From Bacteroidales bacterium (GTDB lineage: Bacteria; Bacteroidota; Bacteroidia; Bacteroidales; UBA4417), in NCBI GenBank assembly GCA_038212135.1, contig JBBQUX010000003.1:350-64349 (forward strand): a DNA stretch of 64,000 nucleotides. Direction: 5' to 3'. Positions 12,326 to 64,000 of this stretch are shown piece by piece (position 1 is the first letter of the stretch; each line of letters begins with the position of its first letter). Both the position numbers and the translations under genes were made by a program. The notes beneath the pieces were generated by a model, which saw nothing but the letters and a program-made list of their open reading frames with translations, was not told the origin of the DNA and searched no databases.

Positions 12326-12386
12326 TGCACTTCGGCTTGTTTCGACTTCGTAAAACAACCATCGCTCAGTGCATTGAATCGTTATA

Positions 12387-12518
12387 ACCCTCCATACTCT
12401 CCAAACCCTTCAAACTCTCCAAACCCTTCAAACTCTTCAAACCCTTCAAACTCTCCAAACCCTCTAAACCCTCCAAACCCTTCAAACCCTTCAAACCGAA
12501 CCCCCAATCCCTGAAAAA
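12387..12518 (+). repeat. CTTCAAAC/CTCCAAAC nonamer tandem array (~14 units), nearly G-free, ending at the ATG of the next gene
   Basis: Read directly. I count only 2 G in ~130 nt. The array generates the spurious PSNSPNPSN and FEGFGEFEG ORFs in the track. Confidence 0.85.
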
Positions 12519-12746
12519 ATGCTTCCCGATTCTCAACTCCTTCTTCAGCTGGTCGAAATGAAGATGCCTTTCGGAAAATACAAAGGCACTCTGTTGTGCA
12601 ACCTGCCTGTTTCATATTTAGAGTGGTTTAACCGTAAAGGTTTTCCAGATGGGAAACTTGGTATGTTGCTCCGCACTATTCATGAAATAAAACTTAACGG
12701 GCTCGAAGACCTTCTCGATCCAATCAGAAAAATGCAAAAGTTGTGA
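12519..12746 (+). CDS. DUF3820-family protein
   Basis: The MPFGKYKG..L..LP..YL.WF...GFP.GKLG pattern is typical of DUF3820. Confidence 0.8.
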   Translation: MLPDSQLLLQLVEMKMPFGKYKGTLLCNLPVSYLEWFNRKGFPDGKLGMLLRTIHEIKLNGLEDLLDPIRKMQKL

Positions 12747-18965: not shown

Positions 18966-20205
18966 CACCTGTATTCAGCGTGTTAGCAGGTATATTGATT
19001 GTTGCAGTTTCATCTCCATGTTGCACTCCATCAATTTCCTGTATTACCTGATATTCTCCTCCATTAGCAGAAGTCTGGTATAAACAAACAGTAGCCTTTT
19101 GAAGGTATGCTAAGTTTTTAATTGTCACTACTATTGAATTATCTTCATCCAATCCAATATGTCTGGGCGTTACTTCCGCAATAAATCTTACAGGTTTTTT
19201 TGTATAATACATCATTTCGGGATCACCAAATTAGTTATTTGTAAGATATGTTTCATAATTATAATAATAATCATAATAAGGGCTTTTCCCTACATACCAA
19301 GCCCAGTCTGCTGTGCAATATCGGGTTTGTGTTTGATTAGTTCCCATATGGCAAGCTTTTAAAACTGAAGTTAAAGCACCTAATTTGTACTCTCCTGTAG
19401 GATCCAATCAACAAACTTGTTCAATGGTATAGAATTTACAAAGTTGTCAGGTACAACCACAACATAATCCATATTTGCCACTGTAGTTGAGCTTTGGTCT
19501 TTTTGTTTGATTACCTCAATATTGCTGATAAATGAATCTATCATTTCAGGGTTTTTTAATTATAGCAGATAATTCACTGACATAATAGTTAAAAAAAGAT
19601 CTTACCATCTTTACGGTTTGAGTTCCGTTATTTCCATTATTATCTGAATAATAAACAATTATATTCTTGGAAGTGCAAAACACAAGTTTATTTTCCTTTG
19701 GATAATATTTGAATGGAGTAAGATCAATTGTAACAATTTGTGCCAAATACCAATATCCAATATTAGAAATTGGCTCATCTGATGGGAAATAAGAATTGTT
19801 TAACTAAACTGACGAATCAATAGACGTAAACCCTGGTACAAGGCAATTAATGCAAGTTGGAACAGGAGACTGTGCAGGGAATATCTTATGGCTTAAGAAA
19901 ACCATAGTAGTATCTCCGCCGATAATTTTAATACTATCAATTCGACTCTGAGTTGGTATGAGAAATTTAACAGAAACCATGGGTAATGCAGGCTGCCCAG
20001 GTTGAGAAAGCGTCGCATCTGGCAATGCGGGGAAGTAGGTGTATATCTGATTGTCAGGACATAAGGCATCACACATAACAAAATCAGAAATTGAAAATCT
20101 TTCAGAGTGATTAATCTGGCAGATTGAATGCAATGAGCAGATAACCAGAGTAATGATAATAATATGTTGCTTCATAATTTTATAAATTTTAGGATATGTA
20201 AACAT
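18966..20205 (-). pseudogene. Decayed secreted peptidase-like gene (C25/gingipain-type propeptide similarity) with frameshifts, an in-frame TAA and large internal/terminal deletions
   Basis: The pieces lie in three frames: signal peptide plus GQPALPMVSVKFLIP propeptide-like segment (19804-20205); ...VTIDLTPFKYYPKENKL (19546-19746); DYVVVVPDNF...; ...YLTNN*FGDPEMMYY... followed by an Ig-like piece ending near 18966. No C-terminal sorting domain. The family assignment is tentative. Confidence 0.5.
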
Positions 20206-24953: not shown

Positions 24954-24961
24954 TATATTTG
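24954..24961 (+). promoter_or_regulatory. Candidate -7 box (TAtaTTTG) only 5 nt before the ATG, implying a leaderless or near-leaderless transcript
   Basis: TATATTTG at 24954-24961; ATG at 24966. Confidence 0.35.
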
Positions 24962-24965
24962 TGTC

Positions 24966-26234
24966 ATGACAGAGGAATTCCTGCATTATATCTGGCAATA
25001 CCGAATTTATAGCCCTCATCTCGTGCTGCAATCAGGCGAAAAGGCTGAGGTGCTGCACCCCGGAATTCATAACAGCGATTCTGGTCCTGATTTTTTTAAT
25101 GCTAAGATCAGGATCGGAGAAACCATCTGGGCTGGAAATATTGAGATTCATATTCTTTCGTCGGATTGGAATCGTCATAAACATCAGCATGATATGAGTT
25201 ATGATAATGTGATTCTTCATGTTGTGTGGCGTGATGATTCGGAAGTTTTACGCGCTGATGGAACAGCTATTCCTACGCTCGAACTGGATGGATTATATAA
25301 TGAACATGCCTGGAAAAGTTACCTGGGGTTTATGAATTCCAGGCAGTGGATTCCTTGTAATACTGCGATTTCAAAAGTTGATCCATTCATTCGGAATGCA
25401 TGGCTCGATAGGGTACTGATTGAACGCCTCGAGCGAAAAGCCTTGGAAGTTGAGCATATATTATCAATTAACAGTAATGATTGGGCGCATACTTTTTACC
25501 GTTTACTTGCCCGGAATATGGGCTTCAAACTGAACAACCAGGCTTTCGAAATGCTCGCTTTTTCCTTGCCCTATTCTTTCCTTGCCAAACATGCTGATGA
25601 TCTTTCACAGATTGAAGCCATGGTTTTTGGTCAGGCAGGTTTACTGGCAGGACCCTTCATCGACGATTATCCCAAAAAACTAAAGAAGGAATACGAATTT
25701 CTGCAGAAGAAGTTTGATTTAATACCAATAGAAGCACATCTCTGGCGGTTTATGCGACTTCATCCCGGGAATTTTCCAACCCTGCGTTTGGCACAATTTG
25801 CCTCCATTATCCACCATTCTGGAAATATTATCGGTGAGCTTTTTAATACTAATGATGTTCCTCCCTATCGAAAACTTTTTGGCGCTCAAGCATCGGAATA
25901 CTGGAATACGCATTATACATTCGATAAAGTTTCCTCGCCACGACGAAAAACTCTTGGTGCTTCATCCGTTGATTTGCTGATTATTAACCTGGTTGCTCCA
26001 TTGTTGCTTGCTTACGGTCGGCGTAAAAACGATACCGGAATGACCGAAAAGCCAATTGATATGCTTATGCAGATCAAGGGCGAGGATAACTCAATTATAC
26101 GAAACTGGGCTGAATTAGGCGTTGATGTTTCCAATGCTGCCGCTACCCAGTCGCTACTCGAACTTAAAACAAATTATTGCGATTTGAAAAAGTGTTTGAG
26201 TTGCAGAATTGGGAATGAATTGCTTAAAGGATAA
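24966..26234 (+). CDS. DUF2851-family protein
   Basis: The N-terminus EEFLHYIWQYRIY and the overall 422-aa length match my memory of DUF2851. Confidence 0.85.
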   Translation: MTEEFLHYIWQYRIYSPHLVLQSGEKAEVLHPGIHNSDSGPDFFNAKIRIGETIWAGNIEIHILSSDWNRHKHQHDMSYDNVILHVVWRDDSEVLRADGTAIPTLELDGLYNEHAWKSYLGFMNSRQWIPCNTAISKVDPFIRNAWLDRVLIERLERKALEVEHILSINSNDWAHTFYRLLARNMGFKLNNQAFEMLAFSLPYSFLAKHADDLSQIEAMVFGQAGLLAGPFIDDYPKKLKKEYEFLQKKFDLIPIEAHLWRFMRLHPGNFPTLRLAQFASIIHHSGNIIGELFNTNDVPPYRKLFGAQASEYWNTHYTFDKVSSPRRKTLGASSVDLLIINLVAPLLLAYGRRKNDTGMTEKPIDMLMQIKGEDNSIIRNWAELGVDVSNAAATQSLLELKTNYCDLKKCLSCRIGNELLKG

Positions 26235-26389
26235 AGGTTTGATGAGATTGAAGAGATTGATGGGATTTAAGAGATTGATGGGATTGAAAGGAAGCCAGAG
26301 AACATTAACGATTACTTCGGTACAGTGCCCCGTAAACTGAAACTTGAATCCAGAAACTCTTTTAATATCAATACTCTCAAACTAAAATA
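26235..26389 (+). repeat. Composite intergenic element: purine-rich AGATTGAWG array (26235-26291), ~40-nt core, G-poor CTGAAAC/CTCAAAC-like array (26334-26389) ending at the start codon
   Basis: Read directly. The left units are approximately the reverse complement of the CTTCAAAC family. Confidence 0.7.
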
Positions 26390-29922: not shown

Positions 29923-30032
29923 AAGAATAAGAATTAAAGATAAGGTTAAGGTTAAGGTTAAGGTTAGGGGTGAGGTTAAGTGTGAGGGGAGACCTCAATC
30001 TGAATCTAAACCTAAGTTAATTGAGATTGAAG
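29923..30032 (+). repeat. C-free AGGTTA-type hexamer array (29923-29990) followed by a short G-poor inverted segment
   Basis: aagaat aagaatt aaagat aaggtt aaggtt aaggtt aaggtt aggggtg aggtta agtgtg agggga. I count no C in ~68 nt. It is followed by gacctcaatctgaatctaaacctaag...gagattgaagg. Confidence 0.75.
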
Positions 30033-32376: not shown

Positions 32377-32825
32377 ATGGAGGAAACTTAAATGGATCCA
32401 ATGTGGAATATGCCTAAAAGGAATAATTCAATAAAATAAAAAGTCAGGGGTATTGCAATATGTTGATTTGCACGCAATGCGGAATTTAAAACTTTTCATA
32501 CGCTTGAATTCAAAAGTGCGGATTACTGATGAGTGTAAATTCCTGAGGGCACTTTCCTTTGATCGGACAAATTGATTTCACTGGATGGAAGAATGAAATA
32601 ATTTTTAAACCTGTTTCGATACCTGACTGGCATCTGATTTTTATCCTTCGTTAACTAAATGTTAATAAATATTAAGTGCTCGAAACATATGCAAACACTT
32701 GAATTTATGCGTAATCGGATAGAATATAACAAGCTGTCAGTCAAAAATATTTGGAATTATTGTAAAATGTATATATTTTGGCTCTTTCAAACGGATCAAC
32801 CCAATTAATAACCAAAAACACAAAA

Positions 32826-44589: not shown

Positions 44590-44794
44590 GACGGAAGTCA
44601 GGAGGCTGGAGTCGGAAGTTCCCTTGATGACTTCTATTTTCTCATTAAAGTTGAGCTTGATTAGCTAATTCCATGTCTTCGAATCGTTATCGTAAAAGTA
44701 ATGTTAAATTTCAAATCAGAACCGTTCTTCTGTCTTCGGTCTTCCGTCTTCGGTCTTCCGTCTTCGGTCTTTCGTCTTCTAACTTCCGTCTTCC
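44590..44794. repeat. Inverted arrays of GTCTTCS heptamers flanking a ~100-nt core in a 410-nt intergenic gap
   Basis: Right arm 44724-44794: gtcttcg gtcttcc gtcttcg gtcttcc gtcttcg gtctttc gtcttct aacttcc gtcttcc. Left arm 44590-44623, in the opposite orientation: gacggaag tcaggag gctggag tcggaag. Confidence 0.8.
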
Positions 44795-48565: not shown

Positions 48566-49311
48566 TATTATGCATGTTAATATCAACGTTTTATCATTCT
48601 GTCAGGAGTAAATAGTCTTTTGGTATCGTGCAGAAATTTTGTTAATAAAATTGTAAAAAATCTCAGGTGTCAAAAATTTGGATGAAATGTCAGGCTTTAA
48701 GGTTTCAAAACGGGAAAATAATACCAAAATGAAAAAAAATCTTAAGCGATGTTCGGATTCAGGGACAATATATTTTTCAAATAAATAATGCCCGCGGAAC
48801 GTGCTTCTTTCAGGCATCAAACTCAAGCTTTGCCAGTCAGATAAGTAGTTTTCACAGTAAAATATTCTTTTTCACTTTAATTGAGGACAAATTCATCTTC
48901 CGATACTTCAATTTCAAGATCAGCACCAACCAGTTCAGCCAGCCATTTATAGTCTCTTTTAATAATAAGGCGGATTTCGGTGAATCCAAGAACGGGGAAT
49001 TTTAGAGTTGCTAACATAGTTTTATGATTTAATAATTGGGTTAATACTTTAGTCCATATGAGTTAAAAATAATTCCTATTTATTTATATATCAACCTGTG
49101 TGCCAAAAGTAACTTTGATGCATTCCAAAAAAATATTACATTATTCGGGGGGCTTAAAATTTATATGTTAATTGATCGGTAAATCCGCATTTTCAAAAAT
49201 CTTATCAGCAAGTTCAACGGTATAGAAAATAAACCGATAAGATTTAATGAAGTATGTTTCTACCCACCCGGTTTTTTTTACTGAACAAACATTCATTCTC
49301 TTTCGTTTTAC

Positions 49312-49319
49312 TATCTTTG
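49312..49319 (+). promoter_or_regulatory. Candidate -7 box (TAtcTTTG) for hmgA
   Basis: TATCTTTG lies 44 nt upstream of the ATG at 49363. Confidence 0.4.
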
Positions 49320-49362
49320 AACTAATTCTGAATTAAAATTCATAGCTTCAACAGAGTCAATC

Positions 49363-51820: not shown

Positions 51821-51875
51821 GGGAGAGGGGCAGAGGGGAGAAAAGAGAAAAGAGAAAAGAGAAAAGGCAAGGGGC
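51821..51875 (+). repeat. ~55-nt polypurine tract containing 4 x GAGAAAA heptamers
   Basis: gggagaggggcagaggggagaaaagagaaaagagaaaagagaaaaggcaaggggcgaa. Almost exclusively A/G on the plus strand. Confidence 0.8.
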
Positions 51876-53299: not shown

Positions 53300-53372
53300 A
53301 CCCTGCCCGAAACTCTCCAGACCCGAAACTCTTTAAACCCTTCAAACCCTTCAAACCATTCAAACTCTTCAA
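53300..53372 (+). repeat. CTTCAAAC-family array ending at the ATG of the flavin reductase gene
   Basis: ...cccgaaact ctccagac ccgaaact ctttaaac ccttcaaac ccttcaaac cattcaaa ctcttcaa-ATG. I count no G in the last ~45 nt. Confidence 0.8.
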
Positions 53373-54287
53373 ATGTCCACCATCGACCCAAACAATATTC
53401 CACATCATCACCTGCACCGGATTTTACTTACTGCTATTGCTCCGCGCCCGATTGCTTTTGCCAGTACCATGGACCTTGCCGGTAATGCCAATCTTTCGCC
53501 TTTCAGTTGTTTTAATGTATTCGGCGTAAATCCCAGCACTCTGATTTTTTCACCTTCGCGCAGTGGCCGGACCAATGAACTTAAAGATACTTTGCTAAAT
53601 GTAAAAGAAGTAGCTGAAGTTGTAATCAATATGGTTACCTATCCGATGGTAGAACAGGCTAACCTTGCCAGCACTGAATTTCCACGTGGTGTTAACGAAT
53701 TTTATAAATCGGGATTTACTCCCATCCCTTCGGAGCAGGTAAAACCTTTCCGGGTGAAAGAATCACCGGTTCAGATTGAATGCAAAGTGCGACAGATTAT
53801 CGAAACCGGCACCGGGCCAGGAGCTGCTAACCTTATTATTTGCGAAGTTGTACTGATTCATGTTAATGATTCAATTCTTGATAAATCAGGTGCTATCGAT
53901 ACCCGTAAGCTTGATCTTGTTGGCAGGATGGGAGCTGATTATTACGTGAGAGCATCGGGTAGGGCACTTTTTACTCTCGAAAAACCTATGTCTAAACAGG
54001 CAATCGGTGTTGATTCTTTACCTGAAGATGTGCGGATGAGCAGTATCCTGACCGGTAATGACCTTGGAAGACTTGGAAGTCTTCAGTCTATGCCTGCTGC
54101 ACCTGAAATTGAGAAATATATTATCTCACCCTTGTTCCGGACAATTGCGACCAGGTATAGCGACAGTTCTGAGAAAATTATTGAAGAAGCGCATAAACTC
54201 GCTCATGGAATGATTTCAGCAAATGAATTGCATGAAGCAATTTTGCTGTTGATGGCAGCCAGCACTAATCCTGCAAATGAACATTGA
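53373..54287 (+). CDS. Flavin reductase-family (FMN-binding split-barrel) protein
   Basis: ...PRPIAFAST.D..GN.NLSPFS.FN is typical of this family. 304 aa. Confidence 0.85.
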   Translation: MSTIDPNNIPHHHLHRILLTAIAPRPIAFASTMDLAGNANLSPFSCFNVFGVNPSTLIFSPSRSGRTNELKDTLLNVKEVAEVVINMVTYPMVEQANLASTEFPRGVNEFYKSGFTPIPSEQVKPFRVKESPVQIECKVRQIIETGTGPGAANLIICEVVLIHVNDSILDKSGAIDTRKLDLVGRMGADYYVRASGRALFTLEKPMSKQAIGVDSLPEDVRMSSILTGNDLGRLGSLQSMPAAPEIEKYIISPLFRTIATRYSDSSEKIIEEAHKLAHGMISANELHEAILLLMAASTNPANEH

Positions 54288-60260: not shown

Positions 60261-60265
60261 TTCTA

Positions 60266-60297
60266 AGTCCGTCGTATCACATGGCGGACTTTTTTTA
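60266..60297 (+). terminator. Intrinsic terminator
   Basis: AGTCCGTC-gtatcacat-GGCGGACT followed by TTTTTTT. Confidence 0.65.
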
Positions 60298-60311
60298 AGT
60301 ATTTTCGCCAG

Positions 60312-60319
60312 TATATTTG
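60312..60319 (+). promoter_or_regulatory. Candidate -7 box (TAtaTTTG) 8 nt before the pyrK ATG (near-leaderless)
   Basis: TATATTTG at 60312-60319; ATG at 60327. Confidence 0.35.
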
Positions 60320-60326
60320 CTACCTG

Positions 60327-61097
60327 ATGAAGAAATTTATTCATGACTTTACGGTTACCCGCAATCATCATATTACGGACGACTACTTTGCCTTATATTT
60401 GAAATGTCCGGTCATTCTGCCCTCAATTTTTCCCGGTCAGTTTGCCGAAGTGCTTGTAAGTAACTCAACCACAACATACCTTCGCAGACCCTTTTCGATT
60501 TACGATACTGATTACGAAACAAATGAACTTTCGCTGCTTATCAAAAAAGTGGGTGATGGTACCGCTGCACTCATGAAACTTAAGGAAGGTGATATCCTGA
60601 ACCTGGTTTATCCTTTAGGCAACACGTTTAGTATGCCTGATGGCGAAAAAGCTTTGCTTGTTGGAGGTGGAGTGGGTATTGCCCCGATGCTGCTTTTGGC
60701 AAAACGTTTGAGAATTGAAGGCTTCAAACCTGATGTGCTTATCGGTGGACGAAGTTCGAACGATATTGTTGAACCTGAAAAATATAAACCTTTTGGTGAA
60801 GTGTTTATTACAACCGATGATGGTTCAGCAGGTGAAAAAGGAATGGTGACGCAGCACTCAGTTTTTTCAGGAAAAGTAAAAGAATACTCGGCTATTTATG
60901 CCTGCGGACCTGACCCAATGATGAAAGCCGTTGCAAGGATTGCAGCAGAGTACGATATCCCGTGCGAGATTTCGCTCGAAAATACCATGGCCTGCGGAAT
61001 CGGTGCTTGCTTATGCTGTGTGGTCGAAACAGTTGACGGTAATAAAACCACATGCATTGAAGGGCCGGTTTTTGACACAAGAAAACTTAAATTGTGA
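60327..61097 (+). CDS. pyrK: Dihydroorotate dehydrogenase (class 1B) electron-transfer subunit
   Basis: FAD/NAD-binding RPFSI and GGGVGIAP motifs, and the C-terminal 2Fe-2S cysteines C.GIGAC..C. Confidence 0.9.
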   Translation: MKKFIHDFTVTRNHHITDDYFALYLKCPVILPSIFPGQFAEVLVSNSTTTYLRRPFSIYDTDYETNELSLLIKKVGDGTAALMKLKEGDILNLVYPLGNTFSMPDGEKALLVGGGVGIAPMLLLAKRLRIEGFKPDVLIGGRSSNDIVEPEKYKPFGEVFITTDDGSAGEKGMVTQHSVFSGKVKEYSAIYACGPDPMMKAVARIAAEYDIPCEISLENTMACGIGACLCCVVETVDGNKTTCIEGPVFDTRKLKL

Positions 61098-61103
61098 TTT
61101 TTT

Positions 61104-61217: not shown

Positions 61218-61373
61218 ATCCGACATCCGACATCCGTAATCCACAATCCGCAATCCACAATCCACAATCCGACATCCACAATCCACAATCCACTATCCAC
61301 AATCCACAATCCGCAATCAGACATCCACAATTCGCAATCCGACATCCGCAATCCACAATCCGACATCCGAATC
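61218..61373 (+). repeat. About 22 tandem ATCCRMA heptamers (atccgac/atccaca/atccgca) between pyrK and pyrD
   Basis: Read directly. The array generates the spurious DCGLW-repeat ORF 61087..61356 on the minus strand. Confidence 0.9.
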
Positions 61374-61386
61374 AAAAAAAATAACA

Positions 61387-62298
61387 ATGCCCGAATTATC
61401 AGTTAACGTTCATAAGCTTTTGCTAAAAAACCCGGTTATGTCAGCCTCGGGAACATTTGGCTACGGATCTGAATTCGACGATTTTATCGATGTTAACAGG
61501 CTTGGAGGAATACTTACCAAAGCCTGTACTTCGAAAAACCGTGATGGAAACCGGTATCCGCGTATGGCCGAAACTCCGGCCGGAATGCTGAATTCTGTAG
61601 GGTTGCAAAACAAAGGTGTTGATTATTTTATCGAAACCATTTACCCTAAAATAATGCATTATGATACGCATATTATGGTAAATGTGTCCGATTCAACGGT
61701 TGAAGGCTACATGGAAGTAGCAGAGAAACTAAATCAGCTCGAGAAAATTACCGGTATTGAACTCAATATATCATGCCCCAATGTGAAAGAAGGAGGGATG
61801 GCTTTCGGTACATCCTGCCCTATGGCTGCTGCTGTTACTAAAGCGGTTCGGGAAGTGTATGATAAAACAATGATTGTGAAACTTTCGCCCAATGTAACCA
61901 ATATCGCTGAAATAGCTAAAGCGGTTGAAGATGAAGGTGCTGATTCAGTTTCAGTTATAAATACTTTACTCGGGATGGCAATTGATGCCGAAAAGCGCCG
62001 CCCGATTCTTTCGACCATTACCGGTGGACTTTCAGGCCCTGCTATAAAACCAATTGCGTTGCGCATGGTATGGCAGGTTTCAAAAGCTGTTAAAATACCG
62101 GTTATCGGTTTAGGAGGAATAAGCAATGCGACCGATGCGATCGAATTTCTACTTGCAGGTGCAACCGCTATCCAGGTTGGAACAGCTAACTTCGTTGATC
62201 CACAGGTATGTATCAAAATTCTTGATGGTATAGAGGAATACTGCAACCGGCATGGAATTAAAGATGTAAATGAATTGATTGGTGCACTGGATTGCTGA
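61387..62298 (+). CDS. pyrD: Dihydroorotate dehydrogenase, class 1B catalytic subunit
   Basis: [31 protein letters not shown]. Confidence 0.95.
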
Positions 62299-62406
62299 AA
62301 AGGGGAAAGTTTAAAATGCAAAATTCTAAGGTTAAAACAGTAAAAGTAGTTTTTCGATTTCCATAGTGCCAACCGAATGCCAACCCAATGACAAACTAAC
62401 CATTTC

Positions 62407-62746
62407 ACAATCCTCAAAATCCTCAACCCTTCAAACTCTGAAACTCTTCAAACTCTTCAACCCCTTCAAACCCTTCAAACTCTGAAACCCTTCAAACTCT
62501 TCAAACCCTTCAAACTCTTCAAACCCTTCAAACCCTTCAAACTCTTCAAACCCTTCAAACTCTTCAAACTCTTCAAACTCTTCAAACCCTTCAAACTCTT
62601 CAAACTCTTCAAACCCTTCAAACCCTTCAAACTCTTCAACCCCTTCAAACTCTTCAAACCCTTCAAACTCTTCAAACCTTCAAACCCTTCAAAACCTTCA
62701 AAACCTTCAAACTCTTCAAACTCTTCAACCCCTTCAAACCCTTCAA
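62407..62746 (+). repeat. About 37 tandem CTTCAAAC[C/T] nonamers, ~340 nt, nearly G-free, ending at the purD ATG
   Basis: Read directly. Two unit types (CCCTTCAAA and CTCTTCAAA) are intermixed. I count only 2 G. The array generates the spurious LKSLKG ORF 62475..62675. Confidence 0.92.
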
Positions 62747-64000
62747 ATGACCAAATCCAACATCCTTCTCATAGGCAATGGTGGCCGCGAACATGCCATA
62801 GCCTGGAAACTTGCACAGAGCCCTTTACTTAACCAGTTATTTATTGCTCCGGGGAATGCAGGTACTTCTTTGGTAGGAACCAATGTGCCAGTAAATGGAA
62901 ATGATTTTGAGAGTATAAAAAGCTTTGTGGTTACTAATCGGATTGATATGGTGGTTGTAGGGCCCGAAGAGCCTTTGGTAAAGGGGATTCATGATTTTTT
63001 TTTAGCGGATAATGCCTTGAAGAATATTCCGGTTATCGGTCCTCAAAAAGCGGGTGCTGAACTTGAAGGTAGCAAGGATTTTGCCAAGCAGTTTATGATC
63101 AGGCATAATATTCCCACGGCTGCTTACAGCACTTTTACAATTGAAACTTTAACAGATGGTATTGCATTTATAAAAACACTCAATCCACCCTATGTGCTTA
63201 AAGCGGATGGACTTGCTGCCGGAAAAGGTGTAATAATCTGTAAAACTCTTGCGGAAGCTGAAAAAGAACTGACCGATATGCTTGTTGGCCAAAAATTCGG
63301 CAACGCTTCGGCAATGGTTGTAATTGAGGAGTTTCTTGATGGTATCGAACTGTCAGCATTTGCTATCACCAACGGAAAAGAATACCTGGTTTTGCCCGAA
63401 GCAAAAGATTACAAACGTATTGGCGAAGGCGATACGGGTCCGAATACAGGAGGGATGGGCTCAGTTTCCCCTGTTCCATTTGCTGACAGAGAATTTATGC
63501 AAAAAGTCGAAGACAGAATTATCAGGCCAACTGTTAAAGGGTTGCAGAAAGACGGAATACCCTACCAGGGATTTTTGTTTTTCGGATTAATGAATATAAA
63601 AGGAGATCCGTTTGTTATTGAATATAATGTTCGGTTGGGTGATCCTGAAACTGAATCCGTTTTACCTCGTATTAACAATGATCTGATTGAAATTTTTCAG
63701 GCTACTGCAAATGGAAACCTCTCTGCAATAAAACTGGAAACCGACGAACGCACTGCTGCCTGTGTGATGATCGTTTCAGGTGGATACCCTGGTAATTATG
63801 TTAAGGGGAAAGAAATTTCAGGAATAAAGGAGGTTACTAAAAGCCATATTTTTCACGCCGGTACAGTGACTGAAAACAATAAAACTGTATCTTCGGGAGG
63901 TAGAGTACTTGCAGTTACATCGCTGGCTTCTGATTTAAAAACTGCAGTAAATCAATCGAATGAATCTGCTTTATTATTGAATTTCGAGGGTTCGTATTTT
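62747..64000 (+). CDS. purD: Phosphoribosylamine-glycine ligase, 3' end cut by the window
   Basis: My translation from the ATG at 62747: MTKSNILLIGNGGREHAIAWKLAQSPLL...FIAPGNAGT...VVGPE.PLV.GI. Absent from the ORF track because no stop lies inside the window. Confidence 0.93.
   Translation, partial: MTKSNILLIGNGGREHAIAWKLAQSPLLNQLFIAPGNAGTSLVGTNVPVNGNDFESIKSFVVTNRIDMVVVGPEEPLVKGIHDFFLADNALKNIPVIGPQKAGAELEGSKDFAKQFMIRHNIPTAAYSTFTIETLTDGIAFIKTLNPPYVLKADGLAAGKGVIICKTLAEAEKELTDMLVGQKFGNASAMVVIEEFLDGIELSAFAITNGKEYLVLPEAKDYKRIGEGDTGPNTGGMGSVSPVPFADREFMQKVEDRIIRPTVKGLQKDGIPYQGFLFFGLMNIKGDPFVIEYNVRLGDPETESVLPRINNDLIEIFQATANGNLSAIKLETDERTAACVMIVSGGYPGNYVKGKEISGIKEVTKSHIFHAGTVTENNKTVSSGGRVLAVTSLASDLKTAVNQSNESALLLNFEGSYF

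Follow-up and report, generated by a model that had tools for sequence, protein, structure and literature searches.

A strain-variable, nearly G-free nonamer array adjoins the purD start codon of a Bacteroidales bacterium and belongs to a class of repeats placed by strand at gene boundaries

Why does a housekeeping gene of purine synthesis carry, directly against its start codon, about 340 nt of tandem repeat that is almost devoid of G? This question is raised by purD in a 64,000 nt long stretch of DNA from a Bacteroidales bacterium (contig JBBQUX010000003.1), which was analysed at its full length and is called the window in the following. Between the pyrD stop codon at 62298 and the purD ATG at 62747 lies a spacer of 448 nt (62299-62746). 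From 62405 to 62747 we found on the + strand a nonamer array of about 36 units CTTCAAAC[C/T] plus variants, the last unit of which overlaps the purD ATG (CTTCAAATG). Tandem Repeats Finder (TRF) called a repeat of period 9 with 36.2 copies and a score of 457 at 62425-62747, and degenerate units precede it on the 5' side from 62405 on. The units CTTCAAACC and CTTCAAACT predominate, while CTTCAACCC, CTTCAAAAC, one 8-mer and two double units with CTCTGAAAC are minor variants. Exact matches to CTTCAAACY occur 39 times in the window compared to 1.33 expected (at most 5 in 100 shuffles), and 28 of these 39 are located inside the purD tract. With a short unit (within 1-11 nt) joined head to tail over a length beyond chance, the tract is a minisatellite or long simple sequence repeat (LSSR).

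The 340 nt at 62407-62746 comprise 132 C, 115 A, 91 T and 2 G, the latter at 62440 and 62484. The subsequent run of 264 nt without any G (62485-62748) is the longest of the window, which has a G content of 21%. On the + strand the tract contains no ATG, GTG or TTG. The canonical unit is free of stops in every + strand frame. A TGA arises, however, in each of the two variant units with G (CTCTGAAAC), such that two of the three frames hold one stop each. A preliminary description of the locus, made from the sequence alone, had reported a G-poor nonamer array filling most of the 448-nt spacer up to the purD ATG without ATG or GTG starts, which agrees with the TRF call, the base counts and the start codon count; its statement that the unit yields no stop holds for the canonical unit but not for the two CTCTGAAAC units. 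A coding tract or an N-terminal extension of PurD is ruled out, as there is no start codon and the short frames opened by upstream ATGs stop before the array. Open reading frames (ORFs) crossing the array on the minus strand are repeat artefacts. An assembly artefact is ruled out as well, since four other contigs (loci L001, L002, L118 and L119), which come from three independent datasets, contain it too. The non-array 5' part of the spacer (62299-62404, + strand) consists of about 60 nt of mixed sequence followed by C/A-rich degenerate repeats, including 2.5 copies of TGCCAACCCAA at 62367-62394; it is almost identical in L118 and L119.

Is the array part of an RNA? On the same strand purD (phosphoribosylamine--glycine ligase; 62747-64000, cut by the window end; TIGR00877, E = 1.4e-140) is preceded by pyrD, encoding the catalytic subunit of class 1B dihydroorotate dehydrogenase (61387-62298; NF005574, E = 1.1e-131), and by pyrK, encoding the electron-transfer subunit of dihydroorotate dehydrogenase B (60327-61097), probably the first gene of an operon. 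We accepted the purD start at 62747 because PurD homologues, which are mostly 427 aa long, cover the query in full and because the PurD proteins of relatives begin with M-N/K-K-S/T-N-I/V-L-L-I-G at the equivalent codon. The promoter scan was based on the Bacteroidetes -7 box TAHHTTTG (PMC6847099). Ahead of pyrK (60265-60319, + strand) a strong terminator-like hairpin with an 11 bp stem and a T run (60265-60291) is followed by an exact -7 box, TATATTTG, at 60312-60319. From this box to purD no further exact TAHHTTTG and no terminator-like site was found, including at 62299-62404; one-mismatch candidates, both weak, occur only at 61098 and 61176. As a canonical -7 box includes a G (PMC6847099), none can lie within the G-free array. 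As the array touches the purD ATG, no transcription start is possible on its 3' side either. A promoter within the array or a leaderless purD is ruled out, since the -7 box needs a G and the final units hold no such motif. Given the missing box inside the array, its contact with the ATG and the lack of canonical promoters and terminators from pyrK to purD, the array is almost certainly transcribed, and the promoter and terminator motifs indicate that it is most likely an intercistronic region of a pyrK-pyrD-purD mRNA.

Such an RNA is predicted to be largely unstructured. For the sense RNA of 62299-62790 (492 nt) a minimum free energy of -21.3 kcal/mol was obtained compared to -32.2 ± 3.9 kcal/mol for shuffled sequences (z = +2.8). 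It folds less stably than 100 out of 100 shuffles with the array predicted to be unpaired, bearing out the little secondary structure that had been expected for the sense transcript in the preliminary description. The antisense RNA of the same region folds to -104 kcal/mol. A search against Rfam across the window returned no match at the gathering score and, at E <= 1, a spurious miRNA match inside pyrD only. A structured RNA or riboswitch, i.e. a purine- or pyrimidine-responsive leader, is thus ruled out by the missing Rfam match and the predicted lack of pairing. By fold prediction, the tract offers a single-stranded region adjacent to the initiation region, as is characteristic for standby sites. 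Single-stranded standby tails in E. coli saturate at 16-18 nt (PMC5934652), such that 340 nt are far beyond any standby need. In Flavobacterium johnsoniae, where leaders have an average length of 33 nt, initiation is raised by A at positions -3, -6, -12 and -13 (PMC6847099). The final 14 nt before the purD ATG carry C at -3, -6 and -12 and T at -13, and these missing adenines argue against a strong purD initiation site.

Whether purD needs the array can be judged from relatives. In genomes whose PurD is about 80% identical the gene order pyrK-pyrD-purD is kept, and the pyrD-purD spacers, which are 231, 70 and 52 nt long, do not contain the array. The preliminary description had suggested that the array could be an expandable unstructured leader or spacer or, alternatively, a contingency tract that tunes purD expression. 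The unstructured leader survives, with the transcription inferred and the RNA predicted to be unpaired. An enhancing or tuning role is weakened by the array-free spacers of relatives, the missing initiation adenines and the saturation of standby tails at 16-18 nt. A similar picture is seen for the neighbouring spacer between pyrK and pyrD. In the window it holds a heptamer array of about 22 units ATCCGAC / ATCCACA / ATCCGCA (61218-61370, + strand), for which the C-rich strand is again the sense strand and which ends 17 nt before the pyrD ATG. In the relatives only 1-3 ATCCGAC-like seeds are found in this spacer.

Within the species the length of the array varies. The array itself and the CTTCAAATG junction are present in each of four assemblies, whose flanks are 97-99% identical and whose PurD is 99-100% identical. 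The window carries the first allele, with a spacer of 448 nt and 36 units. L118 carries a second allele with a spacer of 511 nt and 43 units. The same allele is found in L001, where the contig breaks in the array and the 30 recovered units match the last 30 units of L118. The contig of L002 also breaks in the array, after at least 37 units of a third allele. The alleles share anchor units and differ in the unit number between these anchors. Errors of short-read assembly may affect the unit counts, yet L001 and L118 are independent and identical. A comparison of unit number across strains, suggested in the preliminary description, thus reveals a difference between close genomes (36 vs 43 units, at least three alleles in four assemblies), as expected for slippage-type instability. 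The pyrK-pyrD heptamer array differs as well, with 22 units in the window vs 28 in another strain (L119). The turnover of both arrays is rapid.

To see how general this arrangement is, one genome per species was scanned for three consecutive nonamer units, which provided at least 110 loci. Among the matches listed about nine tenths are from Bacteroidota genomes assembled from metagenomes, and the taxa comprise Lentimicrobiaceae, other Bacteroidales, Paludibacter, Prolixibacteraceae/Tangfeifania, Prevotella, Saprospiraceae and Chitinophagales. In these loci 122 nonamer arrays were delimited by TRF and compared with simple gene calls. The 3' end of the C-rich strand faces a start codon on the same strand in 56 arrays (17 within 12 nt, 35 within 60 nt) and a stop codon on the opposite strand in 42 arrays (27 within 11 nt). 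At the 5' end of the C-rich strand a stop codon on the same strand follows in 52 arrays (3 within 12 nt) and a start codon on the opposite strand in 37 arrays (1 within 12 nt). Gene boundaries within 12 nt are therefore found at 44 of 98 3' ends vs 4 of 89 5' ends (Fisher p = 4e-11). Considering starts within 60 nt, 35 of the 122 arrays have the same-strand 3'-end orientation vs 7 with the opposite one (p = 1.5e-5). A check of the placement relative to start codons, also put forward in the preliminary description, hence gives a strongly non-random result across genomes. In terms of mRNA the arrays take the form of a leader, (CUUCAAACY)n-AUG, or of a trailer, stop-(RGUUUGAAG)n. The purD array is of the leader form; like other start-abutting repeats it lies in forward orientation at a start that lacks a Shine-Dalgarno sequence, and it ends in the ATG itself. 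The ORFs tested on the stop side are genuine. In 10 of 10 cases Pfam domains reach their C-termini, so that shadow ORFs are rejected as the source of the stop-codon class. Directly after the stop-side arrays no consistent hairpin with T run, i.e. no intrinsic terminator, was found.

The rule is not limited to this nonamer. The surveyed loci also hold at least 248 other short-unit arrays with at least 188 unit types, among which period 7 is commonest. The surveyed genomes are rich in LSSRs, and this diversity of arrays and unit types fits a general mutational process. Arrays of unrelated units that adjoin starts contain 8.8% G and 22.5% C on the sense strand, and those that adjoin stops 29% G and 12% C. 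Ordinary leaders, with G below C, and ordinary trailers of the surveyed genomes have the same skew in a milder form. In the 5' flanks of the nonamer arrays we found neither a regular promoter box nor another conserved element: an exact TAHHTTTG within 150 nt was present in only 5 of 34 cases, and the frequency of -7 boxes upstream of arrays resembles that of ordinary co-directional spacers (22% against 26%). In these 5 cases the box is located 18-127 nt upstream of the array, which places the array in the 5' untranslated region (5' UTR). The genes downstream of nonamer arrays are diverse and include, besides purD, a flavin reductase, a GldB neighbour and, judged by their N-termini, a putative YrdC-like and a putative YraN-like gene. 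Some arrays precede orthologous genes of different species, for example the window gene at 12519 and its counterpart in L043, those of L007/L089 and of L036/L113, and the Beta_elim_lyase gene of L119/L025. The presence of an array at orthologous genes can thus persist or recur.

What, then, is the array? In the explanation that we prefer, and to which we give about an even chance, it is a slippage-prone minisatellite that is tolerated as an unstructured, start-free leader by Shine-Dalgarno-independent initiation, with its orientation under selection and its length probably functionless. A minisatellite of LSSR type would have expanded inside the intercistronic spacer of the probable pyrK-pyrD-purD operon. 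Its transcription would yield a G-free RNA with no start codons, no Shine-Dalgarno-like sequence and essentially no base pairing, and because of these three properties it would be tolerated directly against the purD AUG. There it may serve as a single-stranded landing region for the ribosomes of Bacteroidota, which initiate independently of Shine-Dalgarno pairing. Selection on the leader RNA would enforce the orientation in which the G-poor strand is the sense strand, while the array length would drift via gain and loss of units. This length is probably without function, because relatives manage with array-free spacers of 52, 70 and 231 nt and because standby effects are saturated at 16-18 nt.

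Several points weigh against this explanation. The exact nonamer recurs in orders as distant as Bacteroidales and Chitinophagales/Saprospiraceae, and it is found at orthologous genes of different species; neither is predicted by pure drift. The stop-codon class is the tighter one (27 of 42 within 11 nt), and tolerance in leaders cannot explain it. Non-consensus promoters could exist at 62299-62404. Furthermore, an RNA of 340 nt that is ribosome-free, rich in C and devoid of G has every sequence property of a Rho utilisation (rut) site (PMC6407284), such that the harmlessness of the array is an assumption.

The latter point leads to the main rival, which we consider unlikely on balance, namely that the array is a rut-like attenuator. 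The C-rich, G-free RNA would recruit Rho after the ribosomes have left pyrD. The transcripts that reach purD would then depend on ribosome loading at the AUG and on the tract length, and the unit number would set the pyrD:purD ratio. By definition, the RNA of a rut site is unstructured and free of ribosomes over 70-80 nt or more and contains more C than G (PMC6407284). With C:G counts of 29-32 to 0-2 per 78-nt window, predicted lack of pairing and absence of starts, the purD tract has these sequence properties and exceeds the definition many times over about 340 nt. That the RNA is C-rich where it enters a gene and G-rich where it leaves it would suit a suppression of read-in and antisense transcription, and the Rho of Bacteroides is active and carries a large disordered insert (PMC12360218). 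On the other hand, the arrays precede housekeeping genes that need to be expressed, with no promoter possible downstream of the array, and the C-rich heptamer array separates pyrK and pyrD, the subunits of a single enzyme, without a canonical promoter in between. An efficient terminator in that spacer would therefore result in an unbalanced enzyme complex. Less probable still is an extended version, in which the unit number of a (CUUCAAACY)n Rho platform acts as a rheostat and repeats carry a polarity code across at least three phyla. If true, Rho would compete with the loading of ribosomes or ribosomal protein S1 at the AUG, slippage would reset the pyrD:purD ratio within populations, and the repeats would control read-in, read-out and antisense transcription. 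Alternatively, the RNA could form a sequence-specific platform to which a protein with affinity for single-stranded RNA binds, for instance S1 or one with a cold-shock domain, in which case the genes behind (CUUCAAACY)n would form a post-transcriptional regulon. The identical unit in many Bacteroidota lineages and before orthologous genes of different species speaks for this idea. Footprints of OB-fold (oligonucleotide/oligosaccharide-binding) domains are of the order of 7-9 nt, and unit sizes of 7-9 nt predominate among the arrays. A protein platform was also proposed earlier for TAACTGA repeats (PMC4679880). However, at least 188 other unit types obey the same rule of placement and orientation, from which it follows that the shared property is strand composition rather than a motif. 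The downstream genes moreover have no functional theme, and the nonamer in opposite orientation adjoins stops, where the RNA is the complement. We therefore regard a protein platform as improbable.

Equally little likelihood is assigned to a contingency tract, in which changes of unit number adaptively tune or switch purD. A comparable case is uspA2 of Moraxella catarrhalis, whose 5' UTR contains AGAT repeats; there the copy number of the repeat sets expression (Attia & Hansen 2006, in the summary given by PMC4679880). The preliminary description had raised this idea, and the length variation it implies is real: unit number and order vary among near-identical strains. An on/off switch of purD is unlikely, as the unit is 9 nt long and untranslated and the gene is a housekeeping one. 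Neither a reading frame nor a promoter spacer contains the unit, and no promoter motif is possible inside the array, so no on/off mechanism is available. The gene behind the array is purD and not one with a surface, virulence or restriction-modification function, and other array-bearing genes are diverse housekeeping genes. The neighbouring heptamer array is equally variable, as expected of any long tandem repeat, and graded effects through standby binding would saturate at 16-18 nt (PMC5934652). The lowest probability, a very small one, is given to an action at the level of DNA, by a G-quadruplex (G4) on the G-rich strand, an i-motif on the C-rich strand or a duplex-binding protein, with effects on transcription or genome stability. 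A polarity that is blind to gene orientation hints at such a DNA-based property, and the same ORF-independent polarity has been reported for the G4-forming GGGNATC repeats of Xanthomonas and Nostoc (PMC4692102). Yet the G-rich strand of the purD array contains no canonical G4 motif (four G3+ tracts with loops N1-7): its 16 GGG tracts are spaced by 9-45 nt, and never do four of them occur with loops of at most 7 nt. Among the start-side arrays no more than 18 of 35 have a canonical motif, among those on the stop side no more than 11 of 27, and many units in the surveyed genomes have no G run at all. As the purD array is without the motif, G4 formation was rejected as the common property of the arrays.

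Within the window the repeat is also not confined to purD. The preliminary description had missed that the array is one of roughly a dozen short-unit arrays in these 64 kb and that the repeat in opposite orientation adjoins stop codons. Two sister nonamer arrays lie on the + strand before starts. One at 53306-53373 ends with CTTCAAATG at the start of a 304-aa gene (53373-54287), whose ortholog in L003 carries a Flavin_Reduct domain (PF01613). The other at 12386-12497 has 12 units and ends 21 nt before an ATG at 12519; the ortholog of this gene in L043, another Lentimicrobiaceae species, is likewise preceded by an array. In the opposite orientation, a related nonamer array of TTGAAGAGA / TTGATGGGA at 26239-26288 (+ strand, G-rich sense strand) begins 5 nt downstream of the stop codon that closes the gene at 24966-26234. 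Together with the arrays at 29941-29989, 44726-44794 and 51838-51866 it has a G- or purine-rich sense strand and is located 0 to about 80 nt after a stop.

A number of further observations were made on the way. In L003 the spacer of the flavin-reductase ortholog (890-915) has no array and contains two TCTTTTAACC copies 5 nt apart, a pair that may be a proto-repeat of the CTTCAAACC unit. Exact-protein look-ups of PyrD and of the 53373-54287 protein returned no match. Exact TAHHTTTG boxes end 7 nt before the pyrK start (60312-60327) and 4 nt before the start at 24966 (24954-24966), implying that both mRNAs would be leaderless or nearly so. Three regions of the window, 19216-19803, 32377-32825 and 48818-49362 (449-588 nt each), have no ORF of at least 70 aa and no large array. 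In eight Saprospiraceae / Chitinophagales loci (L052, L075, L076, L079, L085, L103, L112 and L116) a conserved 22-nt hairpin element, CGGCGGCTAAACCCGCCGGTAC, recurs in the stretch that follows the nonamer array, about 34 nt ahead of the start codon, and resembles an independent dispersed repeat. At L060 (4853-5502) and L031 (2971-3434) larger repeat blocks, with a period close to 400 nt in the former and to 215 nt in the latter, enclose nonamer or related arrays, which suggests higher-order repeats that contain short arrays.

The arrays also affect assembly. Short-read contigs break at them or are mis-joined through them: those of L001 and L002 end inside the purD array, and that of L119 is joined through it to another gene. 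Here the contig (5130-5250; ENA ERZ27246970 k141_2009376) follows the purD array for about 10 units and then passes into the leader of the Beta_elim_lyase gene, which has a nonamer array of its own, while in L001, which comes from that sample too, the array is joined to purD. The L119 junction is probably an assembly chimera through the repeat, with a genuine rearrangement as the alternative.

Regarding its wider use, the purD locus provides a clean natural test case: a leader of 340-400 nt with no G or start codon, predicted to be unstructured, within a nucleotide-synthesis operon, in front of a gene of simple function and in a phylum where ribosomes take no account of Shine-Dalgarno sequences. 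Alleles of different length occur naturally, and close relatives are wholly without the array. The locus could reveal whether initiation in Bacteroidota responds to the length and composition of a leader by themselves and whether Rho acts on such tracts.

How does the array relate to known systems? Among RNA elements, the omega leader of tobacco mosaic virus is a G-poor translational enhancer. The CA-repeat 5' tails of Sterk et al. 2018 (PMC5934652) are, like the purD tract, G-poor, C/A-rich and unstructured RNA upstream of the initiation region, and as in these tails and in omega such a tract could preload 30S subunits or S1. Unlike the purD region, which comprises 340 nt and is predicted to be unstructured, the CA tails were measured on structured Shine-Dalgarno sites of E. 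coli. Rut sites (PMC6407284, PMC12360218) share the C-rich, G-poor, unstructured RNA of at least 70-80 nt, a description that the purD array matches in the extreme. Natural rut sites are however not built of tandem repeats, and it is Rho-dependent termination that defines them, whereas the purD array is likened to them by its sequence and sits where transcripts must continue into a gene of an essential pathway.

Among DNA repeats, the closest relation is to the TAACTGA heptamers of marine Beggiatoaceae, Cyanobacteria and five Bacteroidetes (MacGregor 2015, PMC4679880). Their largest class ends 1 nt upstream of the start codon, and the purD array likewise adjoins the start. Both lack a Shine-Dalgarno sequence and a functional theme downstream, and both are absent from the corresponding spacer of close relatives. 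In some Bacteroidetes TAACTGA arrays are long like the purD array and reach 43 copies; S1, Csp and CsrA have been proposed as binding proteins (PMC4679880). The unit is a different one, as TAACTGA contains G and TGA/TAA while the unit here is the nonamer CTTCAAACY. The purD array is also G-free and far longer than the 2-6 copies that are typical of Beggiatoaceae, and the lineages (Lentimicrobiaceae, other Bacteroidales, Saprospiraceae, Chitinophagales) differ from the TAACTGA set. For the CTTCAAACY dimer our literature search returned no paper and the single nonamer matched primers only, so that no published description of this family was found in the literature searched. The TTCAAAA / TTTTGAA repeats near starts in Nostoc have the TTCAAA core in common with CTTCAAACY, and TTCAAAA overlaps the start codon in four cases (bioRxiv 10.1101/2022.06.06.494920).

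The placement rule is identical to that of the GGGNATC / GGGGA(C/T)T heptamers of Xanthomonas and Nostoc (Rehm et al. 2015, PMC4692102). The 5' side of these repeats is always nearer to the ORF, whatever the orientation of the latter, and the same polarity is found for the G-rich strand of the nonamer arrays. GGGNATC repeats mostly lie between co-oriented ORFs, and most of them are transcribed (PMC4692102). They differ in unit and phyla from the nonamer, they favour four units and form G4 in vitro, compared to about 36 units and no canonical G4 motif for purD, and their loci were reported as more stable than controls, in contrast to the strain variation seen here. In the wider class of LSSRs with units of 5-11 nt (Mrazek et al. 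2007, as summarised in PMC4679880) and of the heptamers among cyanobacterial short tandemly repeated repetitive (STRR) sequences, repeats are intergenic, attributed to slippage and most commonly heptameric, and the genomes hold many different short-unit arrays, as they do here; Bacteroidota are not among the top LSSR genomes in that summary. The purD array is thus an extreme nonamer member, in Bacteroidota, of an already known class of repeats. Arrays adjoining starts and stops, known from Gammaproteobacteria and Cyanobacteria, are found here in Bacteroidota as well and on a large scale, with the same strand rule in each.

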